Below the pieces are notes generated by a model that was given only the letters and a program-made list of their open reading frames with translations, searched no databases and had not been told where the DNA came from. The position numbers were made by a program, and so were the translations under genes. 32,000 nt of DNA from a virus, in IMG/VR virus record IMGVR_UViG_3300049489_000707, positions 131,035 to 163,034 of that record; one strand, written 5' to 3'. Shown here piece after piece: positions 9,439 through 25,350 of this stretch (positions are counted from its first letter, which is position 1; each line of letters opens with the position of its first letter).

Positions 9439-9709
9439 GCCCTTCACCAAGAAAGAGCTGGCCTGGGCCCGCAAGCAGGCGAAGCTCCTCGGGGTCAAAG
9501 ATGGCCCCGAGGCGTTCCTGGAGATGCGCTGGTCAGAGGTTACGAAGCTTGCTGCAGAGCGGGGTCTGACGTGGGTGATTCAGGACTTGCCAAATCCGGC
9601 CGGAGGTACTCTTCCTGCCATCCCACTGTCACCCACTCCTTCTGCTGCGCCCGGTCGTAAGGCTCGACGACCTTCTTCGTCACGCCCAAAGAGTCGCCGA
9701 CGTACTTGA
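9425..9709 (+). CDS. Hypothetical protein (94 aa); C-terminal third is low-complexity and overlaps the convergent gene
   Basis: ORF track. The N-terminal 55 aa look protein-like. The P/S/R-rich tail overlaps 9540..9911 on the other strand. Confidence 0.4.
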   Translation: MKSSKPFTKKELAWARKQAKLLGVKDGPEAFLEMRWSEVTKLAAERGLTWVIQDLPNPAGGTLPAIPLSPTPSAAPGRKARRPSSSRPKSRRRT

Positions 9710-9911
9710 CCGTCTGCGTCATGTGAAGGCGGTTCCTCAGCTCGGCTCGGAGCATGTACATGCGCGTCGCCAGCCCCTTCAGCTGAACCAGTGCGGACCA
9801 CTCGTCGCCTGACGGCATGCGACCTGGTGTTCTGATCCACTCCTTCAGTGCTCCGATTTCGGTTTCGATTCTAATGCGCTCTTTGTTCCACTTCTCGATG
9901 TCTAGTTTCAC
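9540..9911 (-). CDS. Hypothetical protein (123 aa)
   Basis: ORF track. GTG start with AGGAG 6 nt upstream. Coiled-coil-like N-terminus. Confidence 0.6.
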   Translation of the reverse strand: MKLDIEKWNKERIRIETEIGALKEWIRTPGRMPSGDEWSALVQLKGLATRMYMLRAELRNRLHMTQTVKYVGDSLGVTKKVVEPYDRAQQKEWVTVGWQEEYLRPDLASPESPTSDPALQQAS

Positions 9912-9919
9912 GTTGGCTC

Positions 9920-10165
9920 CTATCGTACAAGCGCAAAGCGGGCCATCGCCTTGCGCAGGCTTTTGCTCCTGACCTGCGGCTGAATGCCGATGGCCATGAG
10001 CTGGTTGTTGAGGTCTGGTTCGCGGATTGCCACATGGGCAATGCCAAGGCCCAAGAGCTTGCGCTCCAAGTCCATCAGGGCTTGTTCGTTGGGCACTTCG
10101 AGGGCCACCGCATGGGTGGTGTTCGGGAGATTACCTGGGGCACTCTCACCGGCGGCATGAATCAA
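9920..10165 (-). CDS. Minimal PTH2-like (peptidyl-tRNA hydrolase 2 fold) protein; true N-terminus probably further upstream
   Basis: TTG start in the ORF track. The in-frame upstream sequence HHYCIIRSDLPRGVQFAQ (to 10219) aligns with QVIVMRKDLKMRRGKEIAQGAHA of the PTH2 gene at 29911. The C-terminal half aligns with ...VCLQVDSEEEL...CVAIGP.... Confidence 0.5.
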   Translation of the reverse strand: MIHAAGESAPGNLPNTTHAVALEVPNEQALMDLERKLLGLGIAHVAIREPDLNNQLMAIGIQPQVRSKSLRKAMARFALVR

Positions 10166-10219
10166 CTGGGCGAACTGAACGCCTCTCGGGAGATCCGACC
10201 GGATGATGCAGTAGTGATG

Positions 10220-10273
10220 AAAAAATGAGACCGTCTCAGACTCCCCTGATGGGGACTGACCTGAGACGGTCTC
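10220..10273 (-). terminator. Rho-independent terminator (13-bp perfect stem, inner 5-bp stem, T6 tail)
   Basis: GAGACCGTCTCAG (10227-10239) pairs with CTGAGACGGTCTC (10261-10273). Inner stem TCCCC/GGGGA. On the minus strand it is followed by A + TTTTTT (10225-10220). Confidence 0.75.
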
Positions 10274-10343
10274 GGAACCAAGTTTGTCGGCGGGCAGCCC
10301 GCTGCTGTCAATGCTCTGAGTTCATGGAATTCATTCTACCGCA

Positions 10344-10349
10344 AGATTA
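10344..10349 (-). promoter_or_regulatory. AATCTT-family motif (TAATCT) overlapping the endolysin TAA stop
   Basis: Minus-sense CGAACCGTAATCTTGCGGTAGAATG, about 70 nt upstream of the terminator hairpin. Confidence 0.35.
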
Positions 10350-10979
10350 CGGTTCGTCAACCGGCTTCGACTCATCTGCCGGCGGGGGGAGGACAACCGC
10401 AGGCTTCGCCGCTTTCGGCTTCACGCCCCAGGTGGCTCTCTTAAGCCAGTTCTTGCGAAACTTGGCCAGGGCTGGGTTGCGGACGATGATCCGCTCGTAG
10501 TAGGCGGCCATCTCATCGCCAAAGGCCCTCACGAAGTCCTCTGGATTGCAGGCGTTGATGGCGGCAAACGACTTGTCGCCCAGGCTGCCGTCGACCTTCA
10601 GTTCGGGACTTGCGCCCAGGGTGTTGCAGGCTCGCTGGGCGAACTCCGCACAGCGCTTCGGGCCCATGTTCACGGCCGAGTCCATCATCTTGGTGGCGGC
10701 GGTCTGGTCGACCACCCTGCCGTAACCCCACTGGTTCCAGAAGTACTTCCGGTACAGGCTCTCGCAGGTCGCTCTGCTGACAGCCTTCAGGCACCCGGGG
10801 AAGAAGTTGACATGAGGCAGGCCGAGGTCCTGAGGGGTCAGCCCGAGACGCTTGATAGTGAGCATGGACCAGCCCCAGACGGTCTCACCACCCGGATCAG
10901 CCGGGTCGTCGACCCAGAAGTTGGTGGGGGTGCCCTCGTGGGCCATGATGACAGGAATCGCTGCTTCAAAAGTGCTCAT
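10347..10979 (-). CDS. Endolysin: GH108-type muramidase with C-terminal peptidoglycan-binding region
   Basis: ORF 10347..11129 trimmed to MSTFEAAIPVIMAHEGTPTNFWVDDPADPGGETVWG (EGG...D..DpGG.T..G motif of GH108). KVDGSLGDKSFAAIN resembles a PG_binding_3-type module. Confidence 0.75.
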   Translation of the reverse strand: MSTFEAAIPVIMAHEGTPTNFWVDDPADPGGETVWGWSMLTIKRLGLTPQDLGLPHVNFFPGCLKAVSRATCESLYRKYFWNQWGYGRVVDQTAATKMMDSAVNMGPKRCAEFAQRACNTLGASPELKVDGSLGDKSFAAINACNPEDFVRAFGDEMAAYYERIIVRNPALAKFRKNWLKRATWGVKPKAAKPAVVLPPPADESKPVDEP

Positions 10980-10984: not shown

Positions 10985-11902
10985 TTACCCTGGCTTCAGG
11001 TTGTCCTGGTGGAGGTAGTCTTCGTGGTACTGATTCAGCTTCGGGTTCCACCACTTGACCTCGTAGTAGTGTCCCGGGCCGTCGATGTCGTTGTCTTGGT
11101 ACTGGGCCGACGTCACCTTGCCCTTCCAAGGGACGGCCTGCTGGTCGACGTGGGTCACGGTCTGGCCCGGCTTGTACAGCTGGCCGCCGGCCTTCAGCTT
11201 CGCCTTCTTGGCCTCGGTCTCACGCTGTCGAGCCAGCTCGTGAAAGCCTGGGTCGCTCATCATGGCGTGATGGGCGTCTGCGAGAATGCCCTCCACCTTG
11301 GTGCGAGCCAGCTGCTTGCGAGCCTCGATTTTGGGGACGATCGACGACACGCCGTCTGCTACCTGGGGGCCTGCAGCTGCAGTCTCTTTGACGGCCGCGT
11401 CCCACCCTGCCGGGACCTTGGCTGGGGTTGCAGCTGGGGCAGGTTTAGCCGCCGGCTTCTTGAAAGGAAGCACCTTGCCGTCTGCCTTAGCCAGCTCGCC
11501 CTTCTTCTCTTCCTTGGCCGGCTTGTCCTGGAGCAGGAACGCATCGCCTCGATGCGGCTTGAAGCGGTAGAAGTTCTCCTGCTTATCGGCCAGGCCCTGA
11601 ATCTCGTGGGGAACCGGCCCCATGGGGTCAAGGCCCAACTCCTTCATGTGCAGCTGGTACATCATGCCGTGCTTGTGGCCTTCCTCGTGGCTGCCTGCCG
11701 CCTGAGCTGCCTTGAGCCCCTGCATGTGGTACGCTGCTGCCTCACGGTGCTTGTCCTGCTTGTACTCGTGGTGAGCGCGGTGCTCGGCGTCTGGCCGGGC
11801 CATGCGGTGCTTGAACTCGTAGACTGCCGCCCTGGATTCCAGGTCGTGCTTGTCTTCGTCCTTGGCAATCTTCCGACCGTTCCAGCTTGGTGCGTTATCC
11901 AT
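10985..11902 (-). CDS. Hypothetical His/Lys-rich protein (305 aa)
   Basis: ORF track. ATG start, 8-nt overlap with the upstream gene. The antisense ORF 10979..11914 is rejected. Confidence 0.65.
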   Translation of the reverse strand: MDNAPSWNGRKIAKDEDKHDLESRAAVYEFKHRMARPDAEHRAHHEYKQDKHREAAAYHMQGLKAAQAAGSHEEGHKHGMMYQLHMKELGLDPMGPVPHEIQGLADKQENFYRFKPHRGDAFLLQDKPAKEEKKGELAKADGKVLPFKKPAAKPAPAATPAKVPAGWDAAVKETAAAGPQVADGVSSIVPKIEARKQLARTKVEGILADAHHAMMSDPGFHELARQRETEAKKAKLKAGGQLYKPGQTVTHVDQQAVPWKGKVTSAQYQDNDIDGPGHYYEVKWWNPKLNQYHEDYLHQDNLKPG

Positions 11903-13196
11903 TGCGGCTCCTGAACGTCTTCATCAGTGCCTTGACCGTCTCAGCGTCGATGTTGGAGCTGAAGTCCAGCACGTAGCCGTCACCGTAGGCTGTGGTCTTG
12001 ATGCTCTTGGCGAGGTCGCGGAAGCAGATGCAACCCTTGAATTTGTTGTTCTCGAACTGGTGGCCTTCGCAGATTTCACAGGGCCGCTCGGCTTCGGACT
12101 TGCCGACAGCGAGGCCTGGTTGCTTGGGAGCCTTGGGGAGCTTGGGCTTCGGCGCTGCGCCTTGAGTGGCCTGGCCCATGGTCGGCTGCTTCTGCGGAGG
12201 CATGGCGCCTTGAGGGCCTTGCTGCGCGGTAGGCTTGTGGCTGCTGCCTGGTAGCTCGACCTTGCCGAACTGAGGATTCTTCGCGTTGCCGGCCCAGAGC
12301 GCTTCGCCCTCGTCCGTTTGTAGCTTTGATGGATGCACTGTTTTTCCTGTAACTTTCTGGGCGTGGGCATACATCGCCGACGCAACACCTCGACGCTGAT
12401 GAGCTTCATCAACGCCAACGGTGCCAGCAACCAGGGCGTTGCCATGGTGCTTGAAAGTGGCGACACCAACTGGGTCGCCGATGTGGTCTGGGTGAAATGC
12501 CCGGACGGTAGTCATTGAGCCGTTGTGCTCATGATGAAAGGTGTAGCCGGCGTTCGGGTCCAAGACCTTCTTACCCAAGCCAGGCTTGAACTCACCCTTG
12601 TACTTCTTCTGATGCCAGTTGGCGATCTCGCCCGCGTCTTTCAGATTGCCGATGCCGCGCTGGACGGTCGACTTGGAGAGGGTGTGAACTACCAGGTAGG
12701 GGCGCTCTGATGAGCTGTCACGCTCTACGTGGTAGTGACCGTGCTGGGTGATAGTCTGGGGACTGAGCACCTTGGGTGACTTCAGTTCCTGCATCAGCAC
12801 CTGGGCCTTGGCCAGGGTGTCGATGCTCTTGCCGAGCTTCACCAGTACAGTGTCACGGACATCGGCGTCAAGAGTACCGGTCTCTACGCCCAGGGCCATG
12901 GCGATGCTGGCAGCGAGGTGGTAAATGCTGGCTTGCTCGAAGCTGTAAACGCCTTCGTTGAGGGTGATACTGCCACTGAAGCCACTGTCCGACTTCTGAA
13001 ACTGGACGTAGCTGTTCTCGATGCCTGGGATTGGCCCCTCGTACTCGTGGGCAGCGGTGAATGAGAGCCAGCCTACAATGGCGCGGGGGATGAGGATTTG
13101 ATCCAGCTGAGGCTCACGCTCAGCAGCCTTCCGCAGGGCTTGTGCCCCGTCGGTACCCAGCGCTGCTGCCATGAATTTCCTGCCCAAGTCGGACAT
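11895..13196 (-). CDS. Hypothetical protein with GNAT-like segment and C-terminal Cys cluster (433 aa)
   Basis: ORF 11895..13208 (TTG) trimmed to ATG MSDLGRK with GGAGAC upstream. VGVDEAHQRRGVASAMYAHAQ resembles GNAT motif A. CEICEGHQFENNKFKGCIC. Confidence 0.65.
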   Translation of the reverse strand: MSDLGRKFMAAALGTDGAQALRKAAEREPQLDQILIPRAIVGWLSFTAAHEYEGPIPGIENSYVQFQKSDSGFSGSITLNEGVYSFEQASIYHLAASIAMALGVETGTLDADVRDTVLVKLGKSIDTLAKAQVLMQELKSPKVLSPQTITQHGHYHVERDSSSERPYLVVHTLSKSTVQRGIGNLKDAGEIANWHQKKYKGEFKPGLGKKVLDPNAGYTFHHEHNGSMTTVRAFHPDHIGDPVGVATFKHHGNALVAGTVGVDEAHQRRGVASAMYAHAQKVTGKTVHPSKLQTDEGEALWAGNAKNPQFGKVELPGSSHKPTAQQGPQGAMPPQKQPTMGQATQGAAPKPKLPKAPKQPGLAVGKSEAERPCEICEGHQFENNKFKGCICFRDLAKSIKTTAYGDGYVLDFSSNIDAETVKALMKTFRSRNG

Positions 13197-13213
13197 CGTC
13201 GTCTCCAAGGCTA

Positions 13214-13219
13214 AGATTA
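13214..13219 (-). promoter_or_regulatory. AATCTT-family motif (TAATCT) overlapping a TAA stop, 17 nt upstream of ATG 13196
   Basis: Minus-sense GGCCGAGGTAATCTTAGCCTTGGAGACGACGATG. Confidence 0.35.
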
Positions 13220-14083
13220 CCTCGGCCCAAAGCCACCATCTTCGGGCTCAGGGGTTTGTCGGGGGCTCTCGGGGCCCGAGTCTTTGTTCTTGGGGTCTCG
13301 TCGTGCTTGGTCGTCGTGGCTCTCGTTGAGGAACAGGAACTCTCGGTTGAGAAGAGCCTGCTGAGGCATGCGAACGAGGGTTCGGTCGTCGTTGATGGGC
13401 GACTCCACCTGGGCCACGCGAATCTCGTGCAGGAGCCGGGCGCAGTACCAGAAGGGCCGGTAGCGGTAGCGAATGCTGATGACAGCGCCCCGGCCCGTCT
13501 CCAGGTCGTCGATGGGGCGTTTGCCGTTGGGCAACCAGTTCACTTGCCCATTCTTGAGGCAGAAGTCTTGTCCTTCCTTGTAGGAATCACCACGAGAGTC
13601 CACCAGATTTTCAACGGTCACAGCGGGGAATGCCAGGCGCTCGGTCCCGCTCTCGTTGCATCGGCTCAGCTGCCACGTGGGCACTGTGATAGACTCTTCG
13701 TTGAGGTAGAAGCGGTCGAACGGGGCAAGGTAAAAGTCTTTACCTTCCTCGTATTGGCGCGGGAAGCTGGCTGTAAAGCTCGCACCGTCCACAAAGCCAA
13801 CATCCCGCAAATCCTGCTTGTTTTGGTTCCCGACGAGCAGTGACTTGATGCAGCCGGCCTTGCTGTAGAGGTAGCCGTTGCTGCAGCCGGCGTGGTCTTC
13901 ATGAGGCCTGCGGTTGTCGTCCAGGTCGGTCATCCCTACTGGACAGCGAAGGGCCACGTAGTGGACCAGCTGAACGCCGTGGCTACGAATGGCCTGGTCA
14001 AAAGCCTCAGCGTCAAAGCTGACCTGGACCTCACGATGGTCGATGTTCAACGTCTCAACTGGGCTGCGGCCGTTCCTTGCCAT
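13217..14083 (-). CDS. Hypothetical (probably structural) protein (288 aa)
   Basis: ORF track. ATG start, globular composition, no family recognised. Confidence 0.65.
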   Translation of the reverse strand: MARNGRSPVETLNIDHREVQVSFDAEAFDQAIRSHGVQLVHYVALRCPVGMTDLDDNRRPHEDHAGCSNGYLYSKAGCIKSLLVGNQNKQDLRDVGFVDGASFTASFPRQYEEGKDFYLAPFDRFYLNEESITVPTWQLSRCNESGTERLAFPAVTVENLVDSRGDSYKEGQDFCLKNGQVNWLPNGKRPIDDLETGRGAVISIRYRYRPFWYCARLLHEIRVAQVESPINDDRTLVRMPQQALLNREFLFLNESHDDQARRDPKNKDSGPESPRQTPEPEDGGFGPR

Positions 14084-14085
14084 GG

Positions 14086-14409
14086 TTACTTCACCGGCTC
14101 GGCCGTCTCACAGATGGCTCGGAGTGCATCGGTGAGGTTCTCGTACTTGGGGAGCACCAACTCGAAGGCCTCGATGTCGACATGGTCGGACTTGCTCAGC
14201 TCAGACCAGACGATTTCCGGCTCATGCTTCTGAGCGATATGACGCGCCACAGCACGGTGGGGGCCAGTACCTAGGGTCTCGTAGCCAGTGCCGCCGGGGG
14301 TGACCAGGATGTGGAGGCCGCCCTTCGTGCGCAGGTGATAGACGGGCTTGCCGTGTAGGTTGCCCACCTTCTTGGGTTTTTCGTCGATTTGTTTCGCGCT
14401 AAGGTCCAT
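14086..14409 (-). CDS. Hypothetical protein (107 aa)
   Basis: ORF 14086..14427 (TTG) trimmed to ATG MDLSAKQ with AAGGAG upstream. Confidence 0.6.
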   Translation of the reverse strand: MDLSAKQIDEKPKKVGNLHGKPVYHLRTKGGLHILVTPGGTGYETLGTGPHRAVARHIAQKHEPEIVWSELSKSDHVDIEAFELVLPKYENLTDALRAICETAEPVK

Positions 14410-14432
14410 TTGAGACTCCTTCTTCAAAAAGA

Positions 14433-14438
14433 AGATTG
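14433..14438 (-). promoter_or_regulatory. AATCTT-family motif (CAATCT variant), 23 nt upstream of ATG 14409
   Basis: Minus-sense GGCCGGCAATCTTCTTTTTGAAGAAGGAGTCTCAAATG. Confidence 0.4.
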
Positions 14439-14444
14439 CCGGCC

Positions 14445-14473
14445 TTGACGGGCGTTTTGGGGCCTGATAGGGT
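14445..14473 (+). promoter_or_regulatory. Sigma70-type promoter TTGACG-17-TAGGGT, 7 nt before ATG 14481
   Basis: TTGACG 14445-14450, TAGGGT 14468-14473, ATG 14481. Confidence 0.55.
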
Positions 14474-14480
14474 GCGTCTC

Positions 14481-14720
14481 ATGAAAACGAACCTCGGCAC
14501 CAAGGTCTACTACACCGGCGACATGGCCAACAGCAGCGGCAACTTCGAGGTGGTAGACTTCGCAGGAAGCTACGTCACCCTTCGAGAGATTGACGGAGAG
14601 GGCCGGCGGTTCCAGGGGATTCACACCCACCAGATCGGCGACGTCTACCAGGGCCACTGCAACCCCCGCTTCGTCACCGAAGAGGCCCGTCAGGCCTTCC
14701 GGAAGGCGAGGGGCCTGTGA
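14481..14720 (+). CDS. Hypothetical protein (79 aa)
   Basis: Internal ATG of ORF 14436..14720 (MKTNLGTKVYYTGD...). Confidence 0.6.
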   Translation: MKTNLGTKVYYTGDMANSSGNFEVVDFAGSYVTLREIDGEGRRFQGIHTHQIGDVYQGHCNPRFVTEEARQAFRKARGL

Positions 14721-14941
14721 AGCTGGACTCTACGCTGACCCCCAAGGAACTCAGGCTGGTCAGGGCCGACCTGAAGGCCAGGGGTCTGAAGCTCCCCAAG
14801 AGCGGCTGGACGATTCAGCTCAGCAACGGTACCCGGGTCTGTAGGGACCAGCACGGCTACTACTTGACTGGACCATTTCCAGGTGTTACATCACCGTTGG
14901 CCAAAGGCCACGTTTACATCACAGAAAGGCAGCACACATGA
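14717..14941 (+). CDS. Hypothetical protein (74 aa)
   Basis: ORF track. GTG start in a GTGA overlap with the previous stop. Confidence 0.5.
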   Translation: MKLDSTLTPKELRLVRADLKARGLKLPKSGWTIQLSNGTRVCRDQHGYYLTGPFPGVTSPLAKGHVYITERQHT

Positions 14942-15459
14942 GCGAAGCACAGATAGACACGTTTGTAGTCCTGACTGAATCCGGCGACCTTCAGGAGAGA
15001 AACGAGAGGGTTCTGGAGGCCGTCAAGAGGATGCCACAGCAGCAAGGCACCTACCAGCAGGTCATCGACTTCATCGCTGGAACGAATGACGTCCCCATCG
15101 CCGACGGGAACGCCATCTCGGCACCCATCATCAGCGCTCTTTCGGAGCTGTACTACGAGGGCTGGCTCAATGGCGAAATCAAGGTCCCAAATCCGAGAGC
15201 GCGGAAGACCTACACAAAGAAGGGGAAGCTTCGCAAGCCGAAAGCCAACACCTTGTACCGCTGGCTCGGTTACAAGGGCCCGGAGGTCCCCAAGGACGAG
15301 TCGTGGAAGGAGTACGCCGAACGCCTGGAAGAGGAGCTGAAGCTTGCCAAAGAAGAAGCCAAGCTCATGGAAGAGCTTGCGACCGAAGCAGGCCGGCGCT
15401 ACGCCGAGGCGATGGAGACAATCCAAAAGCTTACGGCGTCGCCAGCCAAAGCTGGTTGA
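14938..15459 (+). CDS. Hypothetical protein (173 aa)
   Basis: ORF track. ATGA overlap. Basic middle segment and coiled-coil C-terminus. 29-nt convergent overlap with the giant gene. Confidence 0.6.
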   Translation: MSEAQIDTFVVLTESGDLQERNERVLEAVKRMPQQQGTYQQVIDFIAGTNDVPIADGNAISAPIISALSELYYEGWLNGEIKVPNPRARKTYTKKGKLRKPKANTLYRWLGYKGPEVPKDESWKEYAERLEEELKLAKEEAKLMEELATEAGRRYAEAMETIQKLTASPAKAG

Positions 15460-18400
15460 TGGCCTGGCTCACGCTGGGCTCGGTCAGGAGCTTGCGAATC
15501 CTGACCAGTCTCTCCAGGCTGGGCTGAGGGTCGATGCCGTACCGAGCCAGGACCTGCTCTAGGTCGCCTCCGTGGACACCTTCCAGCCAGGTCCGCAGCT
15601 GCTCGTCGGAGTCCTTGTTCAGGCTGGGCATGGCCCGGAGACGCTGCTCAGGGAGCAGGCCGTGCCAGTTGTCCCCCTTCCAGGCTCGCAGGTAGTACGG
15701 GATGAAGCTGTTCTTGTCACGGGCCGGGTCGAAGCTCGGGCCAGCAAAGGCGCTACCGTGGTCGATGAGGGCTACGGGGTGGTTGTCTTTCTCGGGACCG
15801 ACCATCAGGTTCTGGCCATGCCGGTCTGGGTTGCCCAGGATATAGTCTAGGACCGCCCACTTGTGCAGCTCACCAGTGTGGCGATACTTCTCCAGCGCCT
15901 TGTGGGGCAGGCCTGGGTCCTCGAACTTGAGCTTCTCCAGGTTCTTCCAGCTGAAGGGAAGCAGGTGCAGGGCGGCCACTTCCTGACCGTCAATCAGCAA
16001 GAGGTCGGCCCGTGGCACGCGGTTGCCCAAGCCCAAGGCGTCAGCCACGTGCCAGAAGGCGGCTTCGCGCCGGCTCTGGTTGGCACCTTCCTCTCTGGCG
16101 CCCAAGGCGGGGCTCTGCTTGCCACTGCCGGGCTTCAGGAGGTACATCATACCCGTCTGGGGGTCGCGCACCATCATGGTGCCTTTGGAGTGCTTGCCAC
16201 CAAGGTGGAGGTCTTGGTCGGTCTCAGCGCTGAACCCTCGACGTACCCCATCAGCAACCTCGGCTCCATCTGGCATCAGGGCCTGGATCTCGTGGGTCCT
16301 GTGCGGCTGATTCTTGTTGAGCTTCCCGTCCTGGAGGCTGACCACAGCGAGGATGGCCCTCTTGTTCTTATTATCGACGGGCAGACCCACGGAGGTGAGA
16401 GCGGCTACGTCTGCGTCAAGGCCAGAGAGAAGGGCTTGACGGAACAGGTCATAGTCAGGCTCGGTGTGAGCCAGGAACTGCGCTGCCTTCAGGAATGCTT
16501 CGAACTTCGGCTGCATACCAAGCTGGTCCTCGTAGGTATTATCATACCCTACGCCAGGATCGGACTTGACAATCTGCTCAACCTGTACATCGGCCTTTCG
16601 CAGGTCGGCCCATTCGGTCAGGAGGTCGGCCTCGGTCTTGAGGATGACTCCAACCTCTTGAGGGGTTAGATTCTGGGCCTTGATGCGAAGCTTCTGCCAG
16701 ATTTGCTTGGCGATGTCGTGGCTGGCTTTCTCAGCGTTGCGGTGGCCGAGAATCTTCATGGCCTTGTGGGCCTTGTGCCGCCACATCTGGTCCTGCAGGT
16801 AGTTCTGGAGGTAGGCGATCCGCTCTTCTGGATGTCTCAGGGCGTCGTAGCCCTTGAGGGACCAATCGGTGAGCTTTTTCAGGTGTGCGTGTTCGGTCGG
16901 GTCGAGGGCCGCCAGCGTAGTGGCAACAATGCGATGGCCAGCTTCCTTGCCGTAGGTCTGCTTCAGGTGAGCGAAGATGCCGTGCTGTGTCTCGTGGCCC
17001 AGCGTACCAAGCAGGCCTGGGCCCGACTTGACGCTCATACTGAACTTGCGGCGTGCCGGAGCCACCGGAGTGTTCCGCTTCATGTTGTAGCGGACGTACC
17101 CGTGGCTCATCGCCGTTTGGAGGTCAGGCTTGTCAGCGCCCACGACTGCTATCTCCTGGTGTGCCTCGGGGGTGCGAATCATCGGGGTGCTGGGCACCTT
17201 GTTTTGGCCCAGGCGCGGGTACATCAGATAGCCGACCGTCTTCGCCAGCAGCTCGTGCTTGAGACCTGGAGGTGTGAGGTGGTGGTCAGTGACCATGGAG
17301 CGTTGCTCTTCCGTGCATCGCGGGTGCAGGGCGGCCAGGGTCTGGAGGTCGGGGTCGAAAAGGACAGACTGAATGTGTTCCGGCGTCAAGTCGGGACGGC
17401 TCAGTGCCGCCTTTCGAGTGTAGATGTCTTCATGATGGAGCGCCTCGTGAATCATGGGCGCGGTCATCTTGGGGTGACGTGCAGCGAAAGCCCGGACCTC
17501 AGGGTCTTCGTCTTGGAGGGCCATACGAAGATGGTAGGGGGTGACGTGCTTGTTCTTCAGGGCGAGGATGCGCTCACGAGGATTCTCGTGCTGCAGCATC
17601 GCTTCAAGAGGGTCGTGTTCGGTCTTCTTGAGCTGTGGCTGGCCCTGCTTGCCGTGCAGCTGCATGGCAGTGTACGACTGGACGTAGTGGTCGTCCTTGA
17701 TTTGATCTTCAGTCGCGTTGGCGCAGGCCGTGGAGCCCCAACGCCAAGCATAGGCCGCCTTCTGCGGGTCACCATGACGGTGCTTGAGACGTGCGAAGTG
17801 AGCACTGGCCAGGAGGTTGTAGAACTTGGGGTCGTTCTTGAACTTCTCCAGGAAGGTCTCAGGCGAGCTGAGGCCTGGGTACTTCTGGTTCATCAGCTTG
17901 GACTTCGCGTACTCCTCATGCGCGGTCACCGGCTTGAAGCCGAGAGCACCGAACGCAGTATGGAACTCGCCCTTCTTGTGAGCGGCGTGCGCCATGTTCT
18001 GGCCGAAGCTCGACTCCAGATGGGCGATGGGGATGAGATCAGGATGCAGCTCCTCGGGGGTCCAGGCGGGGATGCCGCTGGCCTGGGCGACCTCATTCAT
18101 CTGCGGCTTGACAGTCTGGTGCTGCTCTGGAACATGCGGGGCCGCTGGGGCGTGGAGAGCACCGCCCATGGCAATGCTGCCAGCGAGTGCTGCGGTAGCC
18201 AGGAAGCCCTTTTTGAGACCGGCTTCAGGGTCTTGGGAGTCTAGATTACGGAGTTGTCCGGTCACGGGACTGTAGCGCTGCAGTCCCACGTGTTTGGCTG
18301 CCTCGTCTCGGTTCATGAAGACCCCGGCGTGAGTCACAAACCCGGCTTCCCAGTCGGAGCTGTTGTGTGGACCGTCTTCCCGGTGATTCATGGAGCCGCC

Positions 18401-19897
18401 CAGAAGCCAAGGCTCGATGTTGTGGTACGCTCCGGTCTCGACAACAGTGCCATCTTTGTGCCGGAATCCAGCATTCCGGAACTCGCCCTTGGAAAGGATT
18501 TCCTCGGTTTTTTGGAGGTCCTCTGACTTGAGGGCGTAGTCGTAGCGGCCCACACGGTCATCGTAGGGGCCCTTCTTCGTCTTCTTGCCAGGCAGCTTCG
18601 GGGCTTGAGTCGCCTTGTACTCAAGCCCGTGCTTCTCGGCGAGCTTCTGGTGAACCCTAGAGGCCATGGAGCTGTGGATGTTGCCAGACACACTTCGTGC
18701 GCCGGCGTGGTAGGCGTGTGCCATCACCGACTCATACAGAGGCAGACCGAGCCCCTTGCCTCGGAACGACTCTTCGAGGTCGGACTGAATGAAGCGCAGA
18801 TTGCCATGCTCCATCTGACCTCGGACATAGCCTACTGGCTGACTGCCGGAATGGAGCGTTGCGTGGATTGTATTGTCGGGCTCGTGTTCGACTCGAACCT
18901 CGAATCCCCTGTGCTCAGGGCTCAATACGTGGCTGTAGTTGAAAACGTTCTTTCCGCGCTCAGTCGTGAACTTGAGGCCGCCACGGGGAATATCTGCGAT
19001 GGCCATCTTTTCCATGTCTTCCGACTTGGCAACAATATGGCGAACGGATAGCGGATGGAAGTAGGCAAGGGCGTCCTTCACGCCGTAGCTGTGGTAGCCA
19101 TGGTAGCCAAGCTTCTTGAGCTTCTTCTCGACCTGGTCAAGGTCGCTGGCCTCGAACATCATGCCGTACTTGGTCTGCTTCCACTTGCCGGCCTTGAGGT
19201 TGAGCTTGTCGTCACCCATGTCGTATAGACGAGTGCCGGCGGGTAGCTCGCCGTGGTAAAGGTGGGCAGCCGATGCAACGTGGGCTTCGGGCGTGCCCGG
19301 ACGTGTGTAGTAGTACGTCCTTGGAATTCTCTTGGAGCGATTGCGCTCTTGACCTGCAGCTCCCGTCCCCTGGAACTTCGGGTCGAGTGTCTTCAGGCCT
19401 GGAGTGGTGCTGTAGTGCTGCACAGGCAGCGGCTTGGTCATCAGGAGGTCTTTCTTCTCCAGCGGCTCGTCGACCTCGCCATCTTGGCAACCGAGCAGGC
19501 GCAGTGTGATGTTCTTTTTGGAGTGCAGGTTGCTCATGATCTCCTCAGGAATATCATGCGCCTCAACCCATTTCCACTCGGAGCACTCTTCGTCGGGGTC
19601 CTTGCCACCATCCGGGTCGCCAACCACGAGGCAACGGAAGCAGTAGATGTGCAAGTCTTCCTTGGCCTCACCCACGCCCAGGTACTCGAAGTTCTCGCCC
19701 TTCAGGCCAGTCTCTTCTTCAAGCTCGCGGCGTGCAGCGTCGATCGGCTCTTCACCGGGCTCGAAGTGACCACCAGGCATGGTCCATTTCTCGGTGTCGT
19801 TCCGTAGACCGAACAAGAGCAAGCCATCGGGATTGAAGGCGGCGATGGACGCTACCTTCGTCGGCTCCTTCTCGCGCTGTGACTTACCGAGCTTCAA
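15431..19897 (-). CDS. Giant polyvalent protein (1,488 aa): Nudix + GNAT + lytic transglycosylase + HEAT/LRV-like repeats + HExxH + PI3K/PI4K-like kinase module
   Basis: Single ORF. TTG start 6 nt after a GGGGG run. GGHFEPGEEPIDAARRELEEETGL (Nudix box, aa 42-65). FRGKGLGLPLYE (GNAT, ~aa 378). IAHLESSFGQN...AFGALGF (Slt-like, ~aa 624-654). Repeats ~aa 765-865. HETQH (aa 968-972). MYLLKPG...LGNPDRHGQNLMV...LIDHGSAF (aa ~1250-1384). Confidence 0.8.
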   Translation of the reverse strand: MKLGKSQREKEPTKVASIAAFNPDGLLLFGLRNDTEKWTMPGGHFEPGEEPIDAARRELEEETGLKGENFEYLGVGEAKEDLHIYCFRCLVVGDPDGGKDPDEECSEWKWVEAHDIPEEIMSNLHSKKNITLRLLGCQDGEVDEPLEKKDLLMTKPLPVQHYSTTPGLKTLDPKFQGTGAAGQERNRSKRIPRTYYYTRPGTPEAHVASAAHLYHGELPAGTRLYDMGDDKLNLKAGKWKQTKYGMMFEASDLDQVEKKLKKLGYHGYHSYGVKDALAYFHPLSVRHIVAKSEDMEKMAIADIPRGGLKFTTERGKNVFNYSHVLSPEHRGFEVRVEHEPDNTIHATLHSGSQPVGYVRGQMEHGNLRFIQSDLEESFRGKGLGLPLYESVMAHAYHAGARSVSGNIHSSMASRVHQKLAEKHGLEYKATQAPKLPGKKTKKGPYDDRVGRYDYALKSEDLQKTEEILSKGEFRNAGFRHKDGTVVETGAYHNIEPWLLGGSMNHREDGPHNSSDWEAGFVTHAGVFMNRDEAAKHVGLQRYSPVTGQLRNLDSQDPEAGLKKGFLATAALAGSIAMGGALHAPAAPHVPEQHQTVKPQMNEVAQASGIPAWTPEELHPDLIPIAHLESSFGQNMAHAAHKKGEFHTAFGALGFKPVTAHEEYAKSKLMNQKYPGLSSPETFLEKFKNDPKFYNLLASAHFARLKHRHGDPQKAAYAWRWGSTACANATEDQIKDDHYVQSYTAMQLHGKQGQPQLKKTEHDPLEAMLQHENPRERILALKNKHVTPYHLRMALQDEDPEVRAFAARHPKMTAPMIHEALHHEDIYTRKAALSRPDLTPEHIQSVLFDPDLQTLAALHPRCTEEQRSMVTDHHLTPPGLKHELLAKTVGYLMYPRLGQNKVPSTPMIRTPEAHQEIAVVGADKPDLQTAMSHGYVRYNMKRNTPVAPARRKFSMSVKSGPGLLGTLGHETQHGIFAHLKQTYGKEAGHRIVATTLAALDPTEHAHLKKLTDWSLKGYDALRHPEERIAYLQNYLQDQMWRHKAHKAMKILGHRNAEKASHDIAKQIWQKLRIKAQNLTPQEVGVILKTEADLLTEWADLRKADVQVEQIVKSDPGVGYDNTYEDQLGMQPKFEAFLKAAQFLAHTEPDYDLFRQALLSGLDADVAALTSVGLPVDNKNKRAILAVVSLQDGKLNKNQPHRTHEIQALMPDGAEVADGVRRGFSAETDQDLHLGGKHSKGTMMVRDPQTGMMYLLKPGSGKQSPALGAREEGANQSRREAAFWHVADALGLGNRVPRADLLLIDGQEVAALHLLPFSWKNLEKLKFEDPGLPHKALEKYRHTGELHKWAVLDYILGNPDRHGQNLMVGPEKDNHPVALIDHGSAFAGPSFDPARDKNSFIPYYLRAWKGDNWHGLLPEQRLRAMPSLNKDSDEQLRTWLEGVHGGDLEQVLARYGIDPQPSLERLVRIRKLLTEPSVSQAINQLWLATP

Positions 19898-19907: not shown

Positions 19908-20747
19908 TTACAGCGTCCCTGAGAAGATCTTGTACCCGAAGAGGGCCTTGAGCTTCTTGGTGATGGCCTTCATCTTCTCTTCCAGCTCTTCGATGCGGCC
20001 CTTAAAAATCTGCGGACCAGGCGTGCTCACGCTCTGGCTGAGGCCGTCGATACCAAGACTCTGGCTCTGGGAGCGGGCAAAGCTGAGAGCCAGCTGGGAA
20101 AGCACCTCGCATGCAGCGCGGCTCCCGATGTACTCGTTGAGGATGCGGGGCAGCATGCCACCTGGGAAGCCCGAGGTGTACTCCACCTGCCACCACGCGG
20201 GGATCCACGGCTTGTTCCCGAGAATCTGCAGGTAGGCGGCGCCGCCACTGGACTGCTGAGGGATGTACGCACCCTGAACGAAGGCGACAGTGAGAGGCAC
20301 GATGTTGATTTGCCCCTTGGTCAGGTAGGAGGTCTCAACCCACTCGTTGGGCACCACGTAGACGTCCAGCTGATTGCTGGGGGTCACGCTGAGCTTGTCC
20401 ATGCTGGTGGCCGGTCGGTGACTGAGCTGGAAGTAGCCAAACGAGCTGTAGAGGTTCAGGTCGAAGGGGTGCTTCTCACGCCGCTTCACGGGGAAGATGT
20501 CAATCTTCAGCTCGCTCTCGGCCTGGGCTACTGCGCCATCGATGATGTCTCGGAGGATGTCGTCAGTGATGATGGTCGCCTTGCCGGTCACGGGGTCCTT
20601 GGCACAGGCCAGACTGACGCCCAAGAGATGACGCGACTTGAGCAGCTCAGGAGTGAGCAGCGGCTCCATCTGCGGGAACTCCGCCTGGATTGCGTTCTCT
20701 GGAATTGGTCCGCCGATTGCGAACCTGGAGTTGGTGTAGTCTGCCAT
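19908..20747 (-). CDS. Hypothetical virion-type protein (279 aa)
   Basis: ORF track. ATG with AAGGAG upstream. Position immediately upstream of the giant protein suggests a virion module. Confidence 0.65.
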   Translation of the reverse strand: MADYTNSRFAIGGPIPENAIQAEFPQMEPLLTPELLKSRHLLGVSLACAKDPVTGKATIITDDILRDIIDGAVAQAESELKIDIFPVKRREKHPFDLNLYSSFGYFQLSHRPATSMDKLSVTPSNQLDVYVVPNEWVETSYLTKGQINIVPLTVAFVQGAYIPQQSSGGAAYLQILGNKPWIPAWWQVEYTSGFPGGMLPRILNEYIGSRAACEVLSQLALSFARSQSQSLGIDGLSQSVSTPGPQIFKGRIEELEEKMKAITKKLKALFGYKIFSGTL

Positions 20748-20756
20748 GACGACTCC

Positions 20757-21167
20757 TTAGATGCAGCCGGTGTCCGAGGCGATCCGGAGGCCGTTCTTGA
20801 CGAGACCCTTGCGAATCACAGCCCCTTCAGTCAAAGTCAGCTGCAGGCTGGCGGTGCCGCTGATGGTGTCGGTGGCCAGGAAGTCGAGCTTCCAGATGCT
20901 GCGATCATCAGGGAATGGGTTGGTGGCAGCTCGGGTGATTTTCTTGCCGTCGTCGATGCTGTTGACGACCACCGAAAGGGTTGCCCCGGTGGCGGGGACA
21001 TATCGCCTGCCTGCAGGTGCAAAGCCTCTCAGAGCGCCGTCCAGGGACTCATCAATCAGCTGAAAGTAGATGCTGGCGGCCTCACCCTTCGTGAACTGCC
21101 CTACCTGGGCGTACTCGAAGCTGTTGACGTTCGCCACATCATTGAGAAATCTTGCACTTAGAAGCAT
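20757..21167 (-). CDS. Hypothetical beta-rich (Ig-like?) protein (136 aa)
   Basis: ORF track. ATG with GAGGAG upstream. Confidence 0.6.
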   Translation of the reverse strand: MLLSARFLNDVANVNSFEYAQVGQFTKGEAASIYFQLIDESLDGALRGFAPAGRRYVPATGATLSVVVNSIDDGKKITRAATNPFPDDRSIWKLDFLATDTISGTASLQLTLTEGAVIRKGLVKNGLRIASDTGCI

Positions 21168-24791: not shown

Positions 24792-24792
24792 A

Positions 24793-24865
24793 TGGAGCCT
24801 GACGGGATCGAACCGTCGACCTCCTGCGTGCAAGGCAGGCGCTCTCCCAGCTGAGCTAAGGCCCC
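24793..24865 (-). tRNA. tRNA-Ala(UGC): tRNA-Ala (anticodon UGC)
   Basis: Reverse complement: GGGGCCTTAGCTCAGCTGGGAGAGCGCCTGCCTTGCACGCAGGAGGTCGACGGTTCGATCCCGTCAGGCTCCA. G3-U70 pair; loop CTTGCAC. Confidence 0.9.
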
Positions 24866-24868
24866 AAA

Positions 24869-24980
24869 CTCCCCCGGTGAGATTCGAACTCACAAGCGGC
24901 GACACTTCCATCGCCACAGCCCACCAGCCTCGTCGGCTAAGCGGTACTCCTGGACACACCCCTATCCAGGCTGCAGGGGA
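24869..24980 (-). ncRNA. Over-long (112 nt) tRNA-like RNA embedded in the tRNA array; isotype unresolved
   Basis: Canonical T arm GTGAG-TTCGAAT-CTCAC. Seven-bp acceptor helix TCCCCTG/CGGGGGA. Hairpins CCTGG-12nt-CCAGG, TTAGCC-GACGA-GGCTGG and GGCGAT-GGAAGT-GTCGCC. Spacers of 6 and 3 nt to the flanking tRNAs match the other units. Confidence 0.5.
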
Positions 24981-24986
24981 ACACCA

Positions 24987-25057
24987 TAGCGGGCCCTGGA
25001 GTCGAACCAGGCTCTCCGGGGTATGAGCCCGGCAAGGAACCGCTCCTCTAGCCCGCA
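24987..25057 (-). tRNA. tRNA-fMet(CAU): Initiator-like tRNA-Met (anticodon CAU)
   Basis: Reverse complement: TGCGGGC TA GAGG AGCGGTT CCTT G CCGGG CTCATAC CCCGG AGAG CCTGG TTCGACT CCAGG GCCCGCT A. Three G-C pairs at the base of the anticodon stem and an unpaired 1:72 (U-U) are initiator hallmarks. The 5' 10 nt overlap the trx 3' end. Confidence 0.75.
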
Positions 25058-25350
25058 GTAACAGTCTTCAGCGCCTCTTCAATCTTCGCTTCCAGGTCGA
25101 TGCTCGGCCTGCCTCCGATGACCCTCATCTTCTCATCTGGCGCCATCAGAATCAAGGTGGGAATGCTACGAACGCTGTACGTAGCCGCCAGCTGCGGATG
25201 AGTGTCAACGTTCACCTTCTTGACCTCCAGCCTGCCTTCGAACTTCTTTGCAATTGCCTCGATTGCGGGGCTCATGGCCTTGCAGGGCCCGCACCAGTCG
25301 GCGTAGAAGTCGAACAGCGTCGGGAGGTCGTTCGGTTGGTTTTCGTTCAT
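25048..25350 (-). CDS. trxA: Thioredoxin
   Basis: FYADWCGPCKAM active-site motif (WCGPC), about 100 aa, and the typical SIPTLIL cis-Pro region. Confidence 0.9.
   Translation of the reverse strand: MNENQPNDLPTLFDFYADWCGPCKAMSPAIEAIAKKFEGRLEVKKVNVDTHPQLAATYSVRSIPTLILMAPDEKMRVIGGRPSIDLEAKIEEALKTVTAG

Follow-up and report, generated by a model that had tools for sequence, protein, structure and literature searches.

The 32,000-nucleotide window analysed here (positions 131,035 to 163,034 of the IMG/VR record IMGVR_UViG_3300049489_000707), which also holds nine tRNA genes, contains one very long reading frame in which motifs of several unrelated enzymes follow one another, and this raises the question of whether such a chain is a genuine protein and, if so, where its enzymes would act. 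A first-pass annotation made from the letters alone had described a single uninterrupted frame at 15431-19897, and this description was borne out: the frame is unbroken over 1,488 aa, it lies on the minus strand (which had not been given), and every motif quoted was found at its assigned residues. The start codon is TTG, 5 nt past a Shine-Dalgarno-like AGGGGG and 10 nt past the stop of the upstream gene, and both start and length are credible because an independent gene call on a 168,933-bp JGI contig gave the same protein over all 1,488 aa and the alignments of close homologues begin at residue 1.

Modules of the encoded protein

Judged by profile scores and by conservation, the motifs are beyond chance (Nudix with an E-value of 1e-21, PI3_PI4_kinase with 37.6 bits against a cut-off of 27.1), and the E-S, HExxH, K/E/DRHxxN/DxG and RxxGxG residues are invariant in homologues down to 20-45% identity. 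Comparison with 89 homologues and 27 IMG/VR loci showed that the product is a chain of eight autonomous modules that are shuffled among relatives, varying in order and copy number, and four of the eight have enzyme-family support. The Nudix module comes first nearly always and the kinase module last always (the latter in the best 150 of 1,024 representative relatives). The features, all on the minus strand, are as follows, with an arrow at the predicted cut:

15431..19897, minus: whole frame, candidate polyvalent effector polyprotein (1,488 aa + stop)
19908..21167, minus: upstream flank, 279-aa and 136-aa genes (in 22 and 19 of 27 related loci)
19460..19897, minus: module A, aa 1-146, Nudix hydrolase domain (matched by sequence in Pfam, PHROG and the PDB)
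19028..19459, minus: module B, aa 147-290, conserved mobile module (27 instances at varying positions in homologues; alignment A4)
19019..19033, minus: V-A-K↓S-E, aa 289-293, junction motif at the B/C boundary
18515..19027, minus: module C, aa 291-461, GNAT acetyltransferase (PF00583 in module copies)
18521..18535, minus: A-L-K↓S-E, aa 455-459, C/D boundary (in relatives a gene ends exactly at the K)
18209..18514, minus: module D, aa 462-563, small and conserved (seen 12 times in homologues, its place in the chain varying)
18155..18205, minus: weakly hydrophobic Ala/Gly-rich segment, aa 565-581, SAR-like, after L-K-K-G and followed by a Pro/Gln-rich linker
17618..18112, minus: module E, aa 596-760, lysozyme-fold, Slt-like lytic transglycosylase (alignment A1, AlphaFold2 model, Foldseek)
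17618..17632, minus: L-K-K↓T-E, aa 756-760, E/F boundary (in relatives a separate gene begins here)
17213..17635, minus: module F, aa 755-895, helical HEAT/LRV-like repeats (HEAT_2/LRV_2 scores below cut-off)
16541..17212, minus: module G, aa 896-1119, all-helical with HExxH (alignment A2, AlphaFold2)
16559..16573, minus: I-V-K↓S-D, aa 1109-1113, junction motif at the G/H boundary
15434..16540, minus: module H, aa 1120-1488, helical lead-in and protein-kinase-like domain (Pfam PI3_PI4_kinase, alignment A3)
10985..14427, minus: downstream flank, 113-aa, 288-aa, 437-aa and 305-aa genes (conserved in related loci)

The Nudix assignment of module A was confirmed by Pfam, PHROG and PDB sequence matches. 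The Nudix box spans aa 42/43-65, with a perfect fit to GX5EX7REUXEEXGU at aa 43-65, NUDIX (PF00293) aligns to aa 15-118 with an E-value of 9.9e-22 (77.8 bits against a cut-off of 21.1), and the module also matches phrog_1198 and, at E ~1e-6, Nudix proteins in the PDB. These PDB neighbours are a mix of DIPP, Ap4A and ADPR enzymes, and for the substrate subfamily all NCBIfam equivalogs scored far below their cut-offs (the best, RppH, with 31 bits against 116). In module C, the motif-A-like segment FRGKGLGLPLYESVMAHAYHAG (aa 378-399) contains the acetyl-CoA motif A (R/Q-x-x-G-x-G/A) as R379-G-K-G382-L-G384. The acetyltransferase proposed there holds at the family level, PF00583 (Acetyltransf_1) being matched by 19 of 20 copies of the module (best E 2.6e-10), although the query's own copy, with 19.7 bits, is marginally under the cut-off of 20.7; PDB matches to GNAT proteins were weak, and relatives carry the module in up to four tandem copies. 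Two further conserved modules, at aa 147-290 and 462-563, had gone unseen in the first-pass annotation. The invariant residues of the former, module B, include H161, E184, R187, P192-R193, Y195, Y197 and E204, and searches of PDB and Pfam returned no relative of it; its identification as ART-PolyVal was ruled out (hhalign probability 1%).

The hydrophobic stretch FLATAALAGSIAMGGAL (aa 565-581) precedes module E, and a similar weakly hydrophobic, usually Ala/Gly-rich segment is found ahead of 43 of the 44 SLT-like modules in homologues, where the best 17-aa Kyte-Doolittle mean ranges from 1.07 to 1.69 and is above 1.4 in 21 of 44. Module E itself carries IAHLESSFGQN (aa 624-634) and AFGALGF (aa 648-654), with E628-S629, G650/G653, A714, W718-R719 and G721 invariant. 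Its AlphaFold2 model (pLDDT 88, pTM 0.81) places E628-S629 at the end of the model's helix 24-34, and every one of the top 27 Foldseek matches in the PDB is a lytic transglycosylase or an enzyme of the lysozyme fold (E 6e-3 and above), the list being headed by Slt, Cj0843, phiKZ gp144, Slt70, MltE and MltD with a probability of 1.0, E-values of 6e-3 to 0.1 and TM ~0.5; in BFVD, the best E-value was 1.3e-5 and most matches were LT_GEWL/SLT proteins. Pfam SLT (PF01464) did not match the query and the family profile had no PDB sequence match. The earlier proposal of an Slt-type transglycosylase thus draws its support from the predicted fold and the lytic transglycosylase/GEWL-type matches, and a Slt-like muralytic domain is supported on modest scores.

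For modules F and G, what had been read from the letters stood in part. The stretches quoted as HEAT/LRV-like, QDEDPEVRAFAARHP (aa 795-809) and HHEDIYTRKAALSRPD (aa 821-836), are in place and module F recurs as a repeat, with about 100 copies across 54 homologues, but the profiles stayed under every cut-off (HEAT_2 with E 0.04 and 14.6 bits against 27.7 for the query; LRV_2 with E 1.4e-4 for one relative). Likewise, HETQH (aa 968-972) of module G is present, and H968-E969-x-x-H972 and E1024-E1025 stay unchanged in 16 sequences with identities as low as 20%, but a match to a known fold or family was not obtained: none of the 16 members had a Pfam match, no PDB sequence matched, and the Foldseek search of the PDB for a zincin fold gave no E-value under 3, the stretch N-terminal to the HExxH helix being modelled at pLDDT <50, so that it may still form a sheet. 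The AlphaFold2 model (core pLDDT ~90, overall 69) puts HExxH and E1024-E1025 both at helix starts, and sequence and model together are consistent with the zincin-type ligand pattern, that is, HExxH on a helix and a third-ligand Glu on a later one. A second HExxH, HEALH at 817, also occurs; only the motif at 968-972 is conserved in homologues.

Module H holds MYLLKPG (aa 1251-1257), LGNPDRHGQNLMV (aa 1354-1366) and LIDHGSAF (aa 1377-1384), and the PI3K/PI4K-like kinase named by the first-pass annotation was upheld, since the query and all 18 of the 18 members of the module pass the PI3_PI4_kinase (PF00454) cut-off. The match in the query is modest in score and covers aa 1325-1386 and model positions 117-173 of 241 only, that is, the ~60 residues of the catalytic-loop-to-DxG core. 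K1255, E1278, D1358-R-H-G-Q-N1363 and D1379-H-G1381 are the same in 18 sequences with identities as low as 42%, DHG standing where DFG would be expected; the module profile gave no significant match in the PDB (E 0.035-0.2). Members also score with Fam20C (12 of 18), HipA_C (10 of 18) and LepB_N, and a lipid kinase is not established because the ~60-residue match equally resembles HipA and Fam20, a protein being as likely a target as a lipid. The PI3K/PI4K-fold kinases, including HipA, and the Fam20/LepB-type enzymes share with module H the ATP-binding Lys, the alpha-C Glu, the DRHxxN loop and the D-x-G motif, and the helical/FAT accessory domains of eukaryotic PI3K/PI4K were not detected in module H.

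The junction motif and the gene slot in Mx1-like phages

A motif described here for the first time, [L/I/M]-x-K↓[S/A/T]-[E/D], marks the module junctions and is 12-fold enriched at module edges. It occurs six times in the query against 0.55 expected (0 of 5,000 shuffles reached six) and 219 times in the 89 homologues against 46 expected. Where relatives have the cassette in separate genes, its sites coincide with the stop and start codons, as they also do with natural termini, and these termini point to a predicted cut after the Lys.

The slot that holds the cassette is conserved within the block of structural genes that leads from head to tail in genomes like that of Myxococcus phage Mx1 (~170 kb). 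In Mx1 the locus is enclosed by the genes for the major capsid protein and the tail sheath and has the same flanking genes, which recur in 19-23 of the 27 IMG/VR loci at 30-60% identity. The 279-aa upstream gene matches phrog_772/phrog_442 (tail fibre/head-tail adaptor) and, downstream, the 288-aa gene matches phrog_1004 (virion structural protein), the 437-aa gene is a GNAT, and the 113-aa product has a conserved E-L-S-K-S-D/E, with the junction motif at a conserved position in 23 of 24 homologues. Metabolic genes, for thymidylate synthase and dNMP kinase, are also scattered through this block, and position alone is therefore no proof of virion association. The Mx1 counterpart (OR576727.2) consists of a 'NUDIX hydrolase' (WNM70333, 1,479 aa) and a 'kinase' (WNM70334, 619 aa), both annotated by name only and without a study found in the literature searched. 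The Nudix, GNAT, Slt-like and kinase modules and part of module B are homologous to those of the query at 36-48% identity, whereas the order differs (GNAT ... ART-PolyVal ... Nudix ... Slt-like) and the cassette is formed by two genes with ART-PolyVal instead of one gene without it.

In the Mx1 genome, 17 of 28 motif occurrences fall in the portal-to-pre-sheath block, a 6.5-fold enrichment for a block chosen post hoc (P ~3e-9, or ~3e-7 without the two polyvalent genes). The portal has two occurrences and the scaffold-position protein four; sheath, baseplate and terminase have none, and the replication, metabolic and tail proteins lack the motif. Its position at junctions and gene ends together with its enrichment in head-module proteins suggests processing by a protease. 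The Mx1 'prohead protease' has a marginal PHROG match and no Pfam match, so its specificity is not predictable.

Proposed packaging and delivery, and alternative readings

Considering the shuffling among 89 homologues, the ART-PolyVal and PBECR5 domains of relatives, the conserved head-tail slot and the motif shared with portal and scaffold-position proteins, all of which fit a virion-delivered toolkit, we think that the product of the frame is probably a polyvalent effector polyprotein, from an Mx1-like phage with a contractile tail (~169 kb), that would be packaged, cut at the junction motif and ejected. The protein would be made late and packaged in the head, where a head maturation protease or its own HExxH module may cleave it at the junction motif into separate enzymes, which would be ejected with the DNA. 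The anchor and the muralytic unit would then act at the envelope during entry, and the Nudix, GNAT and kinase units in the cytoplasm, with nucleotide-type signals or RNA caps and host proteins as possible targets, so that defence would be blunted and the host cell taken over.

The multi-enzyme chain could instead be a product of sequencing or assembly errors that joined separate genes in one frame, as the two or three adjacent genes in Mx1 and most IMG/VR relatives might suggest; this is very improbable, since full-length fused frames occur on five independent contigs at 77-91% identity and at two further related loci (1,580 and 1,678 aa), the junctions are in frame with a conserved linker motif and without stop remnants, and GC3 is 0.76, uniform and gene-like. 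Given a genuine protein, it might still remain unpackaged and act only inside an already infected cell (in nucleotide or NAD housekeeping, in modification of phage or host proteins, or in local wall remodelling, for example). The metabolic genes in the block would agree with this, as would the frequency of Nudix, GNAT and kinase domains among cytoplasmic phage enzymes and the fact that no virion proteomics for Mx1 or relatives was found in the literature searched. We nevertheless regard such a role as unlikely, because a muralytic module with a preceding membrane-type segment would be of little use in the cytoplasm, and it is not the lysis enzyme, as Mx1 encodes a separate endolysin elsewhere in its genome. 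The slot is moreover conserved between virion genes, the junction motif follows portal and scaffold-position proteins and not the replication, metabolic or tail proteins, and the ART-PolyVal and PBECR5 domains present in relatives take their definition from polyvalent proteins for which delivery by the virion is predicted.

A structural role in the tail or baseplate, as a tape-measure or tail-lysin type of protein with enzyme domains as mere decoration, whose transglycosylase drills the wall from the tail tip, would explain why tape-measure, tail-lysin and tail-fibre proteins of the same lysozyme fold appear among the BFVD matches and why the upstream neighbour matches a tail-fibre-annotated PHROG. 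It is hard to reconcile with a chain of globular enzyme modules instead of a long coiled coil, or with a module order and number that vary freely among close relatives, which a length-determining or baseplate-fitting part would not tolerate, and other large Mx1 genes, without the junction motif, are annotated as baseplate components; we hold this role to be rather improbable.

If the packaged polyprotein is the correct reading, its effectors would act before phage gene expression and would thus be prime candidates against early-firing defences, such as NAD/ADPR- or nucleotide-signal-based systems and abortive infection. The compact, conserved and highly variable slot of the culturable Mx1 (Myxococcus xanthus) would allow injected effectors to be catalogued and swapped, and the candidate processing motif would make mature injected proteins predictable from sequence alone. 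The atypical kinase family, with ~400-1,000 representative clusters, and the three conserved modules B, D and G are obvious candidates for biochemical study. More tentatively, the motif may be a junction code read by the head protease of Mx1-like phages, such that code-flanked modules are swapped into the polyprotein or into neighbouring genes, co-packaged, released and injected. Were this speculation true, the code would amount to a cassette system by which injected anti-defence enzymes are exchanged rapidly, including an undescribed injected PI3K/PI4K/HipA-type kinase and the enzyme-like modules B, D and G. A motif that proved to be a protease site could also serve to bring foreign cargo into capsids.

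Comparison with known systems

The prohead proteases of T4 and of the phiKZ group recognise L/I-x-E and S/A/G-x-E, respectively, and this type of trimming relies on a short Glu-containing motif common to scaffold and portal-type proteins. In SAR enzymes, the catalytic domain is preceded by a weakly hydrophobic segment rich in Gly/Ala. The motif of the query differs from those of T4 and phiKZ, its cleavage being predicted from sequence, and its hydrophobic segment is internal to the polyprotein unless processing exposes an N-terminus, whereas that of SAR endolysins is N-terminal. The lysozyme/Slt fold with a Glu-Ser pair at a helix end is shared by module E with PRD1 P7, the T7 gp16 N-terminal domain and the phiKZ gp144/gp181 type, and PRD1 P7 and phiKZ gp144 were among its Foldseek matches, but identity to virion-associated lytic transglycosylases is 15-26%, with TM ~0.5 and no Pfam SLT match. 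The protein kinase gp0.7 of phage T7 is a functional analogue of module H. T4 Alt and IPI-III and the ejection proteins of phiKZ and SPN3US (PMC9503650) follow the same proposed logic of head co-packaging, trimming and ejection with the DNA, although most of these packaged proteins are single-domain, in contrast to a chain of eight modules.

The first-pass annotation knew of no comparable protein, but the polyvalent class, with P1 DdrB and the N4 virion RNAP as examples, was described by Iyer, Burroughs, Anand, de Souza and Aravind (2017; PMC5512222), and the homologous Mx1 locus has been deposited, so the query is not without precedent. Polyvalent proteins are likewise giant: they combine numerous enzymatic domains that are unrelated to one another, their architectures are shuffled and their genes are linked to those of the virion, and their listed components include GNAT, kinase, lysozyme/transglycosylase and HExxH peptidase domains. 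For packaging in the head, precedents with Nudix, GNAT, lysozyme, kinase and metallopeptidase domains are on record in that article and in PMC9503650. The query has several unrelated catalytic domains in one large polypeptide (2-15 in the class), phage coding with linkage to virion genes (Mx1 synteny and virion PHROG flanks), and shuffled architectures with hallmark domains in relatives, which carry ART-PolyVal, PBECR5, a ParB-like domain and mCpol; among the hallmark types (MPTase, ART-PolyVal, PBECR), the query lacks ART-PolyVal and has only the HExxH module, without an assigned family.

In PMC5512222, the Nudix domain is mentioned only in passing, and the kinases form a truncated clade of the Ser/Thr/Tyr type, found in prophages of Verrucomicrobia and Bacteroidetes, unlike the DRHxxN loop of the PI3K/PI4K type. 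Term searches of that article found neither 'PI3K' nor a Nudix-first/kinase-last cassette, modules B, D and G or the K↓S-E motif. Overall, the query is a variant of the known polyvalent class, a polyprotein with the Nudix module first and the kinase module last.

Gene model and modular composition

The 1,488-aa reading frame is genuine. It occupies 19897 to 15431 of the minus strand (1,488 codons and a stop) and opens with a TTG start lying 5 nt past an AGGGGG run and 10 nt past the stop of the upstream gene. The first-pass annotation, made from the sequence alone, had reported one uninterrupted frame here, which was confirmed by an independent call of the identical product on a 168,933-bp JGI contig and by close homologues whose alignment starts at residue 1; every motif it had quoted was also found at its residues. 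The window has no close sequenced relative, since a Megablast search of phage genomes found nothing but a tRNA match, and its nearest sequenced relative is Myxococcus phage Mx1, at the protein level only. Comparison with 89 homologues by BLAST and jackhmmer resolved eight independently recurring modules, two beyond the six noted at first.

The Nudix module (aa 15-118) holds an exact GX5EX7REUXEEXGU box at aa 43-65 and matches Pfam at E 9.9e-22, with concordant PHROG and PDB Nudix matches, in line with the original call; regarding its substrate subfamily, the NCBIfam equivalogs RppH, YtkD, MutT and NudE all scored far under their cut-offs. The GNAT assignment (aa 291-461) was also upheld: the copy in this protein is borderline, scoring 15.3 bits when the full sequence is searched and 19.7 when the module is taken alone (cut-off 20.7), but 19 of 20 diverse copies in relatives match Acetyltransf_1 (best E 2.6e-10) and motif A is present as R379-x-x-G382-x-G384. 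The two added modules are B (aa 147-290; 27 instances with many invariant H/E/R/Y/P residues) and D (aa 462-563). A PDB profile search and a Pfam scan of all members of module B returned only noise. Its invariant H/Y/E residues had raised the possibility of a divergent ART-PolyVal ADP-ribosyltransferase, a reading that was dropped because ART-PolyVal instances lie elsewhere in relatives and hhalign gave a probability of 1%.

The proposed Slt-type transglycosylase stood by fold, with its E-S pair at a helix end, and not by sequence profile. The module (aa 596-760) had no Pfam or PDB sequence match, even using a 24-sequence profile, and its profile returned only noise from PDB sequences. Its AlphaFold2 model (pLDDT 88, pTM 0.81) was searched against the PDB with Foldseek, and the best 27 matches were all lytic transglycosylases or lysozyme-fold enzymes, including P. 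aeruginosa Slt, Cj0843, phiKZ gp144, Slt70, MltE and MltD (probability about 1.0 for the best matches, E 6e-3 to 0.4, TM about 0.5). BFVD matches were mainly LT_GEWL/SLT proteins (best E 1.3e-5), many of them virion-associated (PRD1 P7, tail lysins, an internal core protein). Because of this model, these structural matches and the invariant E628-S629, placed by the model at the C-terminal end of a helix, we accept aa 596-760 as a predicted lysozyme-fold, Slt-like muralytic module, that is, a structural relative and not a Pfam-level member. The best BFVD match, A0A6J5KVM0 of an uncultured Caudovirales phage (538 aa; E 1.3e-5, TM 0.67, 26% identity), bears the annotation PolyPPase_VTC_like domain protein, which suggests that the module is also joined to a polyphosphate-related domain in other phages. 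Ahead of the Slt-like module, 43 of 44 instances carry a weakly hydrophobic stretch of about 17 residues, usually Ala/Gly-rich, typically placed after L-x-K-G/S and usually followed by a Pro/Gln-rich linker, so conserved an arrangement that the segment of the present protein (aa 565-581) is not incidental; its composition resembles that of the signal-anchor-release segments of SAR endolysins.

For the HEAT/LRV-like repeats (aa 755-895), no profile scored over its cut-off, although this helical-repeat module recurs many times among homologues. The HExxH residues of HETQH are invariant in relatives but brought no fold or family match. Within this HExxH module (aa 896-1119), H968, E969, H972 and E1024-E1025 are invariant down to 20% identity, and both the HExxH and E1024-E1025 lie at helix starts in the AlphaFold2 model (core pLDDT about 90, overall 69). 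This is the pattern that the 2017 polyvalent-protein survey describes for the zincin-like 'MPTase' (Iyer et al., 2017; PMC5512222). Foldseek gave nothing better than E 3, a sequence-profile search of the PDB and a Pfam scan of all members gave only noise, and a homologue search with the module profile returned a single unannotated protein. We regard the module as conserved and probably metal-binding, and do not file it as a zincin.

The C-terminal module (aa 1120-1488) matches PI3_PI4_kinase at 37.6 bits (cut-off 27.1), as do 18 of 18 diverse members above the cut-off. The PI3K/PI4K-like claim thus holds for the profile match and the invariant catalytic set, but the aligned part covers only about 60 residues, from the catalytic loop to DxG, and HipA_C (10/18), Fam20C (12/18) and, in one relative, LepB_N also score. 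Against the PDB, the profile reached a Fam20-like protein, ATM/Tel1 and PI3K-delta at E 0.035-0.2. Because of the profile match and the full invariant set (K1255, E1278, D1358-R-H-x-x-N1363, D1379-H-G), the module is predicted to be a protein-kinase-like phosphotransferase that looks active and has a PI3K/PI4K-type loop. The family comprises some 415 representative clusters with E of 1e-30 or lower, and the kinase forms the extreme C-terminus in all of the best 150 of 1,024 representative relatives (351 to 2,445 aa). The IMG/VR loci L008, L016, L023, L024 and L026 have the kinase module twice, once within the Nudix-led gene and once as a gene of its own (about 450 aa) that follows it directly.

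Relatives, genomic slot and neighbouring genes

Relatives arrange and multiply their modules freely, with as many as four GNATs in tandem, as many as five helical-repeat modules and, at some loci, two kinases; Nudix is at the N-terminus in nearly all. They also add ART-PolyVal, PBECR5, ParB-like, mCpol and DUF5661 domains. The Pfam families ART-PolyVal and PBECR5 go back to the 2017 survey (PMC5512222). Mx1 (169,621 bp, contractile tail) is the sole annotated relative. Its cassette is split into a 'NUDIX hydrolase' gene (1,479 aa) and a 'kinase' gene (619 aa), located between the genes for the major capsid protein and for the tail sheath, and synteny between the window and Mx1 extends throughout the block. 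Of the 27 IMG/VR loci compared, many of which lie on 165-182-kb contigs, 19-23 share the flanks of the cassette (136-aa and 279-aa genes upstream; 113-, 288-, 437- and 305-aa genes downstream) at only 30-60% identity, the cassette itself being variable. The flanking genes match virion-structural PHROGs, several downstream neighbours look effector-like, e.g., the 437-aa (GNAT) and 547-aa (mCpol and DUF5661) proteins, and the Mx1 endolysin gene is separate, 100 kb from the cassette. The shuffling, added domains, Mx1 synteny, conserved slot, virion-structural flanks, effector-like neighbours and separate endolysin all accord with how phage-type polyvalent proteins have been defined in the literature, and that this is a polyvalent protein of the structural module is highly probable.

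The 437-aa neighbour (11895-13208, minus strand) matches GNAT PF00583 at 20.9 bits (cut-off 20.7) and carries VGKSE at aa 368-372; in most related phages its conservation is confined to the N-terminal part. The 547-aa protein (3835-5478, minus strand) contains mCpol PF18182 (E 8e-9, aa 84-196) and DUF5661 (aa 438-478), with a junction-type VQKAE between them, and is an mCpol nucleotide cyclase that the phage carries within its structural block; both domains are also fused into polyvalent relatives (homologue P0064). Other features of the window are:

14938-15459, plus strand, 173 aa, and 14914-15426, minus strand, 170 aa: two overlapping ORFs filling a 1-kb gap
24792-26460, minus strand: eight tRNA genes (Ala, Met, Ser x2, Leu, Pro, Phe, Tyr)
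8998-9074, plus strand: tRNA-Ile(AAT), apart from the eight-gene cluster

The two-ORF gap is absent from Mx1 and the closest IMG/VR relative. Its plus-strand ORF is gene-like (GC3 0.74), converges on the polyvalent gene with a 29-nt overlap of its 3' end, and had no homologue among the related loci examined. The tRNA-Ala, the sole nucleotide-level match of the window, is 92-94% identical to Stenotrophomonas phage tRNA-Ala genes. Besides, plus-strand genes at 5562-10500, including a dNMP-kinase homologue (6185-6973) whose Mx1 counterpart adjoins thymidylate synthase, interrupt the minus-strand block syntenic with Mx1, which indicates a local rearrangement or insertion.

The motif at module junctions

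The motif [L/I/M]-x-K-[S/A/T]-[E/D], with the boundary after Lys, occurs in the protein as VAKSE (289-293), ALKSE (455-459), LQKTE (461-465), LKKTE (756-760) and three copies at 1085-1113. The strict form was found 6 times against 0.55 expected, a count reached by none of 5,000 shuffles, and 219 times against 46 expected in the 89 homologues; the core K[STA][ED] reached 18.2 per 1,000 residues within 10 of module edges, compared with 1.5 in cores and 2.0 in unassigned sequence. In split cassettes of relatives, gene 1 ends '...YEYALK*' and gene 2 starts 'MEDGIEQLL...', exactly the ALK/SEDL and LKK/TEHDPLEAML positions of the present protein (slash, boundary). The GNAT-end pattern Y-x-Y-x-L-[K/R/T] (n = 67) is followed by 'SE' in 31 cases, by the protein end in 8 and, in most others, by another residue plus E, and natural N-termini, for instance 'MSDELQKMAIADI', line up with the internal 'AK/SEDMEKMAIADI'. 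This evidence argues that the motif is real and marks autonomous units.

In Mx1, the portal-to-pre-sheath block, delimited for these statistics after the data had been seen, accounts for 19% of the proteome and 17 of 28 genome-wide strict motifs (1.69 versus 0.26 per 1,000 aa, P about 3e-9; P about 3e-7 without the two polyvalent genes). The portal has two (aa 45 and 637 of 686), and a 290-aa protein encoded just ahead of the capsid gene, in scaffold position, has four; none was found in the terminase, capsid, sheath, 1,925-aa baseplate protein or the replication/metabolic enzymes checked by name. This distribution links the motif to head proteins. The 113-aa neighbour immediately downstream of the cassette (14086-14427, minus strand) shows E-L-S-K-S-[D/E] at one shared alignment column in 23 of 24 homologues (30-93% identity), a candidate processing site. 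In the 305-aa and 547-aa neighbours the motif falls within unalignable linkers and has no positional conservation.

The head protease of T4 recognises L/I-x-E and that of phiKZ-like phages S/A/G-x-E, and by analogy the simplest reading would make the junction motif a head-maturation-protease site. A cut after Lys would be favoured because of the natural termini at the motif. Alternatively, the HExxH module may cleave its own polyprotein; self-processing was proposed for MPTase domains in the 2017 survey (PMC5512222). Overall, that the protein is cut at the motif is an almost evenly balanced question, tilting slightly to the negative. The Mx1 'putative prohead protease' (13002-16721 of its locus) has 1,239 aa, an unusually large size for this kind of enzyme. 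It had no Pfam match and its PHROG match to head maturation protease covers 47 residues only; it could thus be a multi-domain fusion in its own right. Its cleavage preference was unpredictable because Pfam and PHROG could not type it.

Proposed role, rival readings and known systems

Established for this protein are a conserved multi-module gene, shuffling, the structural-block slot, an enzyme family for four modules and the motif at natural gene boundaries. In the mechanism we propose, it would be made late, packed in the phage head, cut at the junctions and ejected with the DNA; the anchor and muralytic unit would work at the host envelope, and the Nudix, GNAT and kinase units would target proteins of the host as well as its nucleotide-type molecules or RNA 5' ends. 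We hold this overall picture of a packaged, cut and ejected effector to be reasonably probable. The presence of metabolic genes in the same block could point to an intracellular multi-enzyme that is not packaged, which we consider unlikely, and a role as a tail or baseplate structural protein appears quite improbable. An artefactual fusion of separate genes is hardly credible given that full-length fused ORFs occur independently.

A literature search on PI3_PI4_kinase in bacteriophages gave nothing relevant, and neither the announcement of the Mx1 genome nor a myxophage survey of 2026 reports functional or proteomic results for the cassette genes. Neither the Nudix-first/kinase-last cassette of Mx1-like phages nor a PI3K/PI4K/HipA-type kinase module in polyvalent proteins was found in the literature searched, nor were modules B, D and G (the HExxH module) or the junction motif. 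Published work already predicts that GNAT, kinase, lysozyme and metallopeptidase domains are packaged in phage heads, as are Nudix domains in myoviruses (PMC5512222, PMC9503650). With the polyvalent class already described and a homologous locus on deposit, the protein is not categorically new, and one further member would not astonish a specialist; nonetheless, the junction code together with a culturable model phage makes the long-standing prediction of 'injected toolkits' directly testable.
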